Assembly (NCBI RefSeq): GCF_044324875.1
Contig: NZ_CP172185.1
From: Escherichia coli
GTDB taxonomy: Bacteria > Pseudomonadota > Gammaproteobacteria > Enterobacterales > Enterobacteriaceae
Direction: 5' to 3' (one strand)
Length of the DNA: 64,000 nt
Positions 14,508-15,030 of the stretch are shown in pieces. How positions within the stretch are numbered: position 1 is the stretch's first letter; each line of letters starts with the position of its first letter. A model generated the notes under the pieces. The model had not been told where the DNA came from and made no database searches. It saw only the letters and a list, made by a program, of their open reading frames with translations. The position numbers and the translations under genes are program-made.

Positions 14508-14583
14508 TGGAGCGGGAAACGAGACTCGAACTCGCGACCCCGACCTTGGCAAGGTCGTGCTCTACCAACTGAGCTATTCCCGC
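14508..14583 (-). tRNA. glyY: tRNA-Gly (GCC)
   Basis: Exact reverse complement of the 76-nt GCGGGAATAGCTCAGTTGGTAGAGCACGACCTTGCCAAGGTCGGGGTCGCGAGTTCGAGTCTCGTTTCCCGCTCCA. Confidence 0.97.
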
Positions 14584-14618
14584 TTGGGTGGTCTGTGCTT
14601 TACAGCACTTTCAAATTT

Positions 14619-14694
14619 TGGAGCGGGAAACGAGACTCGAACTCGCGACCCCGACCTTGGCAAGGTCGTGCTCTACCAACTGAGCTATTCCCGC
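14619..14694 (-). tRNA. glyX: tRNA-Gly (GCC)
   Basis: Identical 76-nt copy, 35 bp upstream of the first copy. Confidence 0.97.
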
Positions 14695-14851
14695 TTAATC
14701 TTCGTCTTTCGAACCGCTACTGCCTTGGCTGCCTTCACTCACCTTAGTCACTTACTTTTGTAAGCTCCCAAGGATTCGTTCAGTTGCCGCCTTGTCGCAA
14801 TTCGAAATACTGCGATTGGGTGGTCTGTGCTTTGCAGCACTTTTCAAATTT

Positions 14852-14927
14852 TGGAGCGGGAAACGAGACTCGAACTCGCGACCCCGACCTTGGCAAGGTC
14901 GTGCTCTACCAACTGAGCTATTCCCGC
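14852..14927 (-). tRNA. glyV: tRNA-Gly (GCC)
   Basis: Identical 76-nt copy; first gene of the three-tRNA cluster. Confidence 0.97.
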
Positions 14928-14976
14928 GTACTACTTAATTTTGCTTTCGTAATTTTCGCATTTCTGCGTCGTTACG

Positions 14977-15030
14977 GGAGGCGCATTATACGAGAAATCT
15001 TTCCCTCTGCAACCCCCCTAAAAAATTTTT
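14977..15030 (-). promoter_or_regulatory. Putative sigma70 promoter of the tRNA-Gly cluster with GC-rich discriminator
   Basis: Minus strand reads TTGCAG (15007-15012), 16-nt spacer, TATAAT (14985-14990), then GCGCCTCCC; A/T-rich tract upstream (15018-15040). Confidence 0.5.

Follow-up and report, generated by a model that had tools for sequence, protein, structure and literature searches.

An ERIC element between glyV and glyX of Escherichia coli and its linkage to tRNA-Gly(GCC) genes in Enterobacterales

Why should the two spacers of one tRNA operon, which are near copies of each other, differ so much in length? The question is raised by three glycine tRNA genes, glyV, glyX and glyY, on the minus strand of a 64,000-nucleotide (nt) stretch of Escherichia coli DNA (RefSeq assembly GCF_044324875.1, contig NZ_CP172185.1; hereafter the window), in which the glyV-glyX spacer measures 157 nt and the glyX-glyY spacer 35 nt. 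The first spacer is long because it contains a 121-nt insert, which is a member of the ERIC/IRU family of dispersed repeats. Both the glyVXY operon and the ERIC family are already known. Here, we describe the insert, its occurrence beside tRNA-Gly(GCC) genes of other Enterobacterales, its probable age and its possible effect on the tRNA precursor.

The glyVXY operon and the ERIC element in its first spacer

The glyVXY region of the window shows 100% identity to E. coli 042 (NC_017626.1), and of 5426 complete E. coli genomes every one except a single genome gave a match to it. The annotated order in both 042 and K-12 MG1655 is rsgA, orn, three tRNA-Gly genes, yjeV, queG and nnr, the tRNA genes being named glyV, glyX and glyY in K-12 (b4163-b4165). 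The genes of the window are orthologous to these, with identical tRNA sequences and the same orn-gly-queG synteny. The locus is the known E. coli glyV-glyX-glyY operon, flanked by orn and queG, and as such it is an ordinary find. Its transcribed core is arranged as follows, in the direction of transcription.

14852-14927, minus strand: glyV, tRNA-Gly(GCC) (ARAGORN, Rfam, 042 and K-12 annotation, K-12 alignment)
14816-14851, minus strand: conserved part of spacer 1, 36 nt, an AU-rich single strand plus the mini-hairpin GUGCUGCAAAGCAC (alignment, fold)
14695-14815, minus strand: ERIC/IRU element, 121 nt, its 3' end abutting glyX +1 (gap in K-12, ERIC2 match, alignment, hairpin, covariation)
14619-14694, minus strand: glyX, tRNA-Gly(GCC) (ARAGORN, Rfam, 042 and K-12 annotation)
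14584-14618, minus strand: spacer 2, 35 nt, a copy of spacer 1 without the ERIC (alignment, repeat search)
14508-14583, minus strand: glyY, tRNA-Gly(GCC) (ARAGORN, Rfam, 042 and K-12 annotation)

A first-pass annotation, made from the letters of this DNA, had claimed three identical 76-nt tRNA-Gly(GCC) genes on the minus strand, with a duplicated spacer following two of them, and had named a covariance-model scan as the test that could refute the tRNA genes. The scan with Rfam RF00005 scored 69.1 bits for each copy (gathering score 29; E=1.6e-14; full model, 1-71) in 3/3 copies, and ARAGORN read the anticodon gcc in all of them. The three genes are identical over 76 nt with an encoded 3' CCA, and their ends, GCGGGAA...TTCCCGC-T-CCA, carry glycine-type acceptor pairs and U73; the glycine identity set comprises G1:C72, C2:G71, G3:C70, U73, C35 and C36. 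The repeated spacer was also confirmed: taken along the direction of transcription, it reads AAATTTGAAAAGTGCTGCAAAGCACAGACCACCCAA after glyV and AAATTTGAAAGTGCTGTAAAGCACAGACCACCCAA after glyX, the two copies being one indel and one substitution apart. A repeat search recovered an 89-nt unit (tRNA plus flanks) three times and a 39-nt spacer unit twice. Two other Rfam matches were discarded. One, to YrlA (14555-14654, minus strand), reached 31 bits against a gathering score of 69 and is a below-threshold artefact, because it runs from the T-arm of glyX across spacer 2 into the D-arm of glyY, and the two arms fit the tRNA-like module of that model; the other, to Plastid-ycf2 (E=0.95), is noise.

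The tRNA sequences, promoter, leader, spacer 2, terminator and orn/queG flanks are common to the window and K-12. Identity is 97-100% everywhere outside the insert, with a few single-nucleotide differences upstream of the -35 hexamer, in spacer 2 and in the terminator. In K-12, however, the glyV-glyX spacer has 36 nt, and the 157 nt of the window are owed to the 121-nt ERIC. The alignment contains one exact 121-nt gap, ACCACCCAA/TCGCAG...GATTAA/GCGGG (slashes at the gap borders), whose boundary is ambiguous by the dinucleotide AA.

Several lines of evidence assign this insert to the ERIC family. The primer ERIC2 matches it at 19 of 22 positions, where 0 chance matches are expected. ERIC1R found no match in the insert at up to 3 mismatches, and its complement fits 16 of 22 positions by eye; the mismatch arises because stem changes are compensatory, with CCTTGGG/CTAAGG in place of CCCCAGG/CTGGGG (both primer sequences were checked against published usage). 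The insert aligns end to end with four other E. coli ERICs, at puuR-puuC, queA-acpH, dxs-yajO and mobH-ardC, and the consensus of these four copies, GTGAATCCCCAGGAGCTTACAT followed by AAGTAAGTGACTGGGGTGAGCG, is exactly the reverse complement of ERIC1R followed by ERIC2. The family of insert-like sequences is dispersed: E. coli genomes hold a median of 7 such places, in intergenic DNA with no annotated feature under the match. The spacer and ERIC together fold into a long hairpin of -51 kcal/mol (z=-4.9). Membership was judged independently of RefSeq repeat annotation, and the K-12 RefSeq record has no ERIC repeat annotation at puuR-puuC. From the primer match, the dispersed family, the alignment and the hairpin, we conclude that the insert at 14695-14815 is an ERIC/IRU element.

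Repeats of this family, which reportedly go back to Sharples and Lloyd in 1990 and to Hulton and colleagues in 1991, share with the insert an imperfectly palindromic sequence (about 127 bp) whose core reads ...GAATCC..GGAGCTTAC....GTAAGTGACT..GGTGAG..., dispersal in transcribed intergenic DNA, one long stem-loop, and presence or absence from strain to strain. A length of about 127 bp, about 20 copies in E. coli and a single long stem-loop have been described for the family (PMC2267715; PMC3184786). The copy in the window differs by its place in a tRNA operon, with its 3' end touching a tRNA 5' end, and by its termini, which read AATCGCAG.../...GAAGATTAA where other E. coli ERICs end in TATAC.../...GTATA.

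Because the insert sits in a tRNA array and holds a motif resembling a T-loop (GGTTCGAA), it might be taken for a decayed fourth tRNA gene, or for an independent small-RNA gene with its own promoter. We consider either very unlikely. No tRNA or other Rfam family matched the 121-nt stretch even at E<=1, ARAGORN found nothing in it, a promoter scan of the minus strand gave no promoter-like site inside 14695-14815, and the stretch aligns end to end with ERICs from loci that have no tRNA genes.

Distribution and age of the ERIC-tRNA-Gly linkage

A query for the filled junction detected the ERIC in 1606 of the 5426 complete E. coli genomes (29.6%). The filled allele is found in O111:H8 and ST540 strains and is absent from O157:H7, JJ1887 and K-12. 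Across Enterobacterales, with one genome per species, we searched for an ERIC core 40-70 nt upstream of a tRNA-Gly(GCC) 5' end in one orientation, and obtained 40 loci. These belong to Citrobacter, Enterobacter, Klebsiella, Kluyvera, Leclercia, Yokenella, Trabulsiella, Salmonella diarizonae, Escherichia whittamii and other Escherichia species, Pantoea and Mixta. The 91-nt ERIC-tRNA geometry of the window is repeated in nearly all of them, and in 45/45 units the ERIC ends in ...GAAAGACGAAGATTA(A/T) directly at tRNA +1.

The position of the ERIC within the arrays varies. The 042 arrangement, with the ERIC between copies 1 and 2, is one of four array contexts in which it stands directly 5' of a tRNA-Gly gene; in the others it separates copies 2 and 3, precedes each of copies 2 and 3, or occupies the leader ahead of copy 1. 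Gly-Cys-Leu operons of the glyW-cysT-leuZ type have it as well, before their tRNA-Gly. Since orn/rsgA and queG border the array-type loci, these are orthologous; queG in other species was located by tblastn, used here for positions, the identity percentages not being meaningful. No description of this conserved linkage was found in the searchable literature, two key ERIC papers lying outside it; novelty is not claimable, and we report the linkage as a modest side observation.

Some of the loci have peculiarities of their own. A record titled Enterobacter ludwigii EnVs2 (L026:821-1858) has seven tRNA-Gly(GCC) copies, Candidatus Pantoea formicae (L018:6455-6594) has two tandem ERICs before a glyW-type tRNA, and the ERIC of Klebsiella spallanzanii (L040:958-1057) carries a 9-nt duplication beside the loop. 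In four loci from records labelled 'Enterobacter cancerogenus M004' and 'E. ludwigii EnVs2' (L022, L023, L026 and L027), the ERIC and its flanks group with Pantoea and not with Enterobacteriaceae, which suggests that the underlying assemblies may be mislabelled.

In a neighbour-joining (NJ) tree, ERICs without a tRNA link (four E. coli loci, one from Pantoea and one from Citrobacter) grouped together, and the tRNA-linked ERICs formed a separate group in broadly taxonomic order. The 042 copy is 100% identical to that of Escherichia sp. MOD1 (MOD1-EC7003), 98% to that of E. whittamii and 88-94% to those of Citrobacter, Salmonella, Yokenella and Leclercia, with 65-72% to other E. coli ERICs. Unlike the latter, the ERIC of the window is thus a member of a tRNA-Gly-linked sublineage that spans genera. 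The separate taxonomic clustering and the identity pattern favour an old, vertically inherited unit, and the reading we favour on these comparisons is that the ERIC-tRNA-Gly unit is old, has been inherited vertically and has moved within the cluster by array recombination. The empty glyV-glyX spacer, which K-12 shares with about 70% of E. coli, is then probably a secondary loss. Such a loss could have occurred by gene conversion from the glyX-glyY spacer, or by hairpin-mediated deletion between the flanking AA repeats; the ERIC is flanked by AA...AA in 042 and by TAA...TAA in some genera but not in others.

The ERIC might instead be a recent MITE insertion (MITE, miniature inverted-repeat transposable element) within the 042 lineage, with the K-12-type empty spacer ancestral in E. 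coli. That about 70% of the complete genomes are empty would fit such an event, as would the classification of ERICs as MITE-like elements with TA-flanked ends (review PMC3184786) and the short TAA direct repeat found on either side in some species, for example K. oxytoca (CCTAATC...GATTAAGCG). However, the site is filled in E. whittamii, Escherichia sp. MOD1-EC7003, S. diarizonae, Citrobacter, Kluyvera, Yokenella and others; these copies follow taxonomy and are 88-100% identical to that of 042, compared with 65-72% for other E. coli ERICs; and within E. coli, filled alleles occur in the unrelated backgrounds 042, O111:H8 and ST540. A recent insertion is improbable in the light of these data.

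A further account is that ERICs have inserted repeatedly, and target-site-specifically, at the 5' end of tRNA-Gly(GCC) genes, in place of one old insertion spread by descent and array recombination. The left flanks that accompany the identical right junction are of at least three unrelated kinds (post-tRNA spacer, glyV leader, glyW leader), and homology between units starts exactly at the ERIC 5' end. As recombination needs left-hand homology, homologous recombination alone is insufficient to explain this, and some target-specific insertion is possible. In addition, the leader copy of C. amalonaticus is 79% identical to that of 042 and branches near the unlinked ERICs. On the other side, the linked copies have common termini (AATC...GAAAGACGAAGATTAW) and cluster apart from the unlinked ERICs of the same genomes, as would be expected of descent from one another and not of an origin in the general ERIC pool. 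No ERIC transposase is known. Repeated insertion is a possible explanation that we nevertheless regard as rather unlikely, and one old unit inherited by descent is still preferred.

Transcription, processing and structural constraint

How would an ERIC at this position affect expression of the operon? The elements that surround the three genes are listed below.

15013-15040, minus strand: A/T-rich tract and then a G6 run upstream of the -35 hexamer, possibly an UP element (sequence)
15007-15012, minus strand: -35 hexamer TTGCAG (sequence, conservation)
14985-14990, minus strand: -10 hexamer TATAAT, 16 nt past the -35 hexamer (sequence, conservation)
14978-14984, minus strand: GC-rich discriminator GCGCCTC (sequence; conserved in 22 loci)
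14928-14977, minus strand: 5' leader, about 50 nt, with a transcription start placed near 14977 (published precursor 5' end)
14449-14485, minus strand: putative intrinsic terminator, a hairpin at 14485-14458 and then UUUUUGUUG (fold)

The first-pass annotation had described a TTGCAG-16-TATAAT promoter with a GCGCC discriminator upstream of the genes, and the sequence is as it stated. Moreover, TTGCAG-16-TATAAT-GCGCCTCCCGT is unchanged in 22 orthologous loci of more than 12 genera, with Escherichia, Citrobacter, Salmonella, Klebsiella, Kluyvera, Enterobacter, Leclercia, Yokenella, Trabulsiella, Pluralibacter, Superficieibacter and Silvania among them, apart from the length of the -35/-10 spacer, which is 16 nt in 21/22 loci and 15 nt in Kluyvera. 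The sequence upstream and downstream of it varies, with a comparable A-tract and G-run before the -35 hexamer in the 22 loci. This conservation of the core promoter is a strong phylogenetic footprint. The label 'stringent-type', which had also been given to the promoter, is an analogy that draws on the GC-rich discriminator and a resemblance to rrnB P1: rRNA/tRNA promoters of the rrnB P1 type have in common with glyVXY a 16-nt spacer, TATAAT, a GCGCC-type discriminator and an A/T-rich upstream tract, and differ in the -35 hexamer (TTGTCA in rrnB P1, TTGCAG in glyVXY).

In the work of Kime et al. (2014; PMC3985628), a synthetic glyVXY precursor starts at CCGTAACG / CCGTAACGACG, and RNase E cuts the K-12 glyVXY precursor in vitro by direct entry. 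The start of this precursor corresponds to 14977 downward in the window, 7 nt after TATAAT, and the 5' end at CCGTAACGACG fits a transcription start near 14977 and a 50-nt leader. At the other end, the hairpin at 14485-14458 and the following UUUUUGUUG after glyY are likely a terminator, with a predicted fold of -14.3 kcal/mol (z=-2.4); a simple terminator scan did not call it, because its stem is irregular.

We infer that a sigma-70 promoter starts a transcript of about 530 nt near 14977, which would end at the hairpin and U-run near 14449 and contain, in order, the leader, glyV, spacer, ERIC, glyX, spacer and glyY. Cleavage by RNase E and RNase P and exonuclease trimming are established steps for E. 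coli tRNA operons. Here, the AU-rich single strand behind each CCA would be the target of RNase E, the 5' ends would be generated by RNase P, and trimming back to the encoded CCA would fall to exonucleases. The ERIC of the first spacer would be co-transcribed and fold as a long imperfect hairpin. With its 3' end forming the immediate 5' leader of glyX, the RNase P cut at glyX +1 would also set the 3' end of the ERIC RNA, and the spacer and ERIC hairpin may be released as a by-product of about 150 nt, with one end made by RNase E behind glyV and the other by that RNase P cut. In the minimum free energy structure of the whole precursor the ERIC hairpin stays a separate domain; the identical tRNAs cross-pair in this structure, which makes it uninformative on tRNA folding. 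3'ETS-leuZ and rtT of the tyrT operon are comparable: there, too, a structured non-tRNA segment shares a transcript with tRNAs and is set free by RNase E and RNase P. Those are unique spacers, whereas the glyV-glyX ERIC belongs to a repeat family and is known here from its sequence.

The hairpin itself appears to be constrained. Across the 42 tRNA-linked copies used for covariation, the consensus hairpin has 33 pairs, and standard pairs occupy 96.5% of the cells, compared with about 36% when the partners are slid. Both sides have changed in 16 of the 33 pairs (145 cells), a level reached by none of 500 shuffles, although the shuffle counts and, for folding, the Wilcoxon p-value overstate significance for copies that are phylogenetically related. 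G-U pairs are conserved at several positions. In 42/42 linked copies, folding is better for the sense RNA than for the antisense RNA (means of -41.0 vs -28.3 kcal/mol), and since this asymmetry is also seen in unlinked ERICs, the linked copies lie in the hairpin-forming orientation to transcription. The unlinked E. coli ERICs at puuR-puuC (L003:601-707) and dxs-yajO (L005:601-683) have the same hairpin-favouring orientation to transcription as the glyV-glyX copy; these are the two co-directional gene pairs looked at, too few to generalise. In Yersinia, ERICs work as hairpins at the RNA level (De Gregorio et al., 2005, cited here after PMC3184786 and PMC2267715).

Between genera, the linked ERIC is 83-93% identical to the 042 copy, compared in the same loci with 59-71% for third codon positions of orn, 49-81% for the leader and 62-74% for the 200 nt past the last tRNA. 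Compensatory changes and an identity above that of nearby neutral sites indicate purifying selection or some homogenising process on the linked ERIC. In E. coli the element is dispensable, because it is missing from 70% of the genomes. Tentatively, we raise the possibility that the ERIC at tRNA-Gly(GCC) is no random passenger but either an ancient, structurally constrained leader/spacer module with a host role, or the mark of an unrecognised ERIC target specificity for the tRNA 5' edge. Such a module would be shared by the orn-glyVXY-queG arrays and the operons of the glyW-cysT-leuZ type, always with its orientation hairpin-forming and its end at tRNA -1/-2. Candidate host roles include precursor processing or stability, insulation of the folding of identical tandem tRNAs, and a stable hairpin RNA.

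Reading frames, downstream neighbourhood and significance

Three plus-strand open reading frames (ORFs) overlap the operon.

14388-14747, plus strand: spurious ORF of 119 aa, antisense to glyY, glyX and part of the ERIC (no RefSeq CDS, no Pfam match)
14482-14763, plus strand: spurious ORF of 93 aa, antisense to glyY, glyX and part of the ERIC (no RefSeq CDS, sub-cutoff Pfam noise)
14784-15035, plus strand: spurious ORF of 83 aa, antisense to glyV, leader and promoter (no RefSeq CDS, no Pfam match)

These had been dismissed as artefacts in the first-pass annotation, and rightly so. Frames that stay open for 83-119 codons might suggest a real protein, but the ORFs are antisense to identical tRNA genes and owe their length to tRNA repetition, with translations that share recurring peptides, the antisense of the tRNA repeats. 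Moreover, the RefSeq annotation of 042 and K-12 has no CDS over the tRNAs, and a Pfam search of the three ORFs gave no family at the cutoff (sub-cutoff noise to DUF3830 and RHS_repeat). That any of them encodes a protein is next to inconceivable. Wherever tRNA genes stand in tandem, long spurious antisense ORFs are to be expected, by gene callers and readers alike.

As a whole, the reading that we favour, namely a glyVXY operon with a processed transcript, an old ERIC-tRNA-Gly unit, loss of the ERIC in K-12 and artefactual ORFs, is one in which we have high confidence. Besides the relatedness of the linked copies and the unrelated left flanks described above, several points weigh against it. 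The ancestral-state argument depends on a single representative genome for each species and on an NJ tree that spans about 128 nt and has no bootstrap support, and the cross-species search covered ERICs in one orientation and at 40-70 nt from tRNA-Gly. The high conservation of the ERIC could be due in part to homogenisation rather than to a function at the level of the host. Finally, a generic promoter scan did not call the glyVXY promoter: its -10 hexamer is a perfect TATAAT at a 16-nt spacing, and its -35 hexamer is weak, and it was missed because TTGCAG agrees with TTGACA at 3/6 positions (TTG only). In turn, the first-pass annotation was incomplete, not wrong, having overlooked the ERIC in the first spacer, the terminator and the adjoining, probable datA locus.

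The last of these lies directly downstream. Within 250 bp downstream of glyY (14240-14489) there are four 9-mers that resemble DnaA boxes, one of them perfect.

14240-14248, plus strand: DnaA-box-like TCATCCACA
14252-14260, minus strand: DnaA-box-like TTATTCACA
14414-14422, minus strand: perfect DnaA box TTATCCACA
14481-14489, minus strand: DnaA-box-like ATATCCACA, overlapping the 5' flank of the glyVXY terminator hairpin

The datA locus has been placed in the intergenic DNA that follows glyVXY and queG (PMC5742627), and the position of the cluster agrees with this published place, the match being one of location and of 9-mers. As datA, a cluster of DnaA boxes with an IHF site, is a regulator of replication initiation, read-through from the strong glyVXY promoter would be relevant to its function. 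The same neighbourhood contains a RefSeq CDS of 17 codons (14221-14274, minus strand), annotated as yjeV in K-12 and as 'hypothetical protein' in 042, which runs opposite to queG and overlaps its 3' end. Elsewhere in the window, about 29 kb from glyV, ARAGORN found a tRNA-Phe(GAA) gene (44082-44157, plus strand), by the K-12 map probably pheU, a known island-integration site.

For E. coli, a consequence of modest weight is that in about 30% of strains with complete genomes the ERIC would alter the primary transcript of a tRNA operon with high expression. At a wider scale, the element has been kept at one junction from Escherichia to Pantoea, with compensatory changes. If this conservation reflects function, ERICs would gain a concrete and testable role in the metabolism of tRNA precursors.

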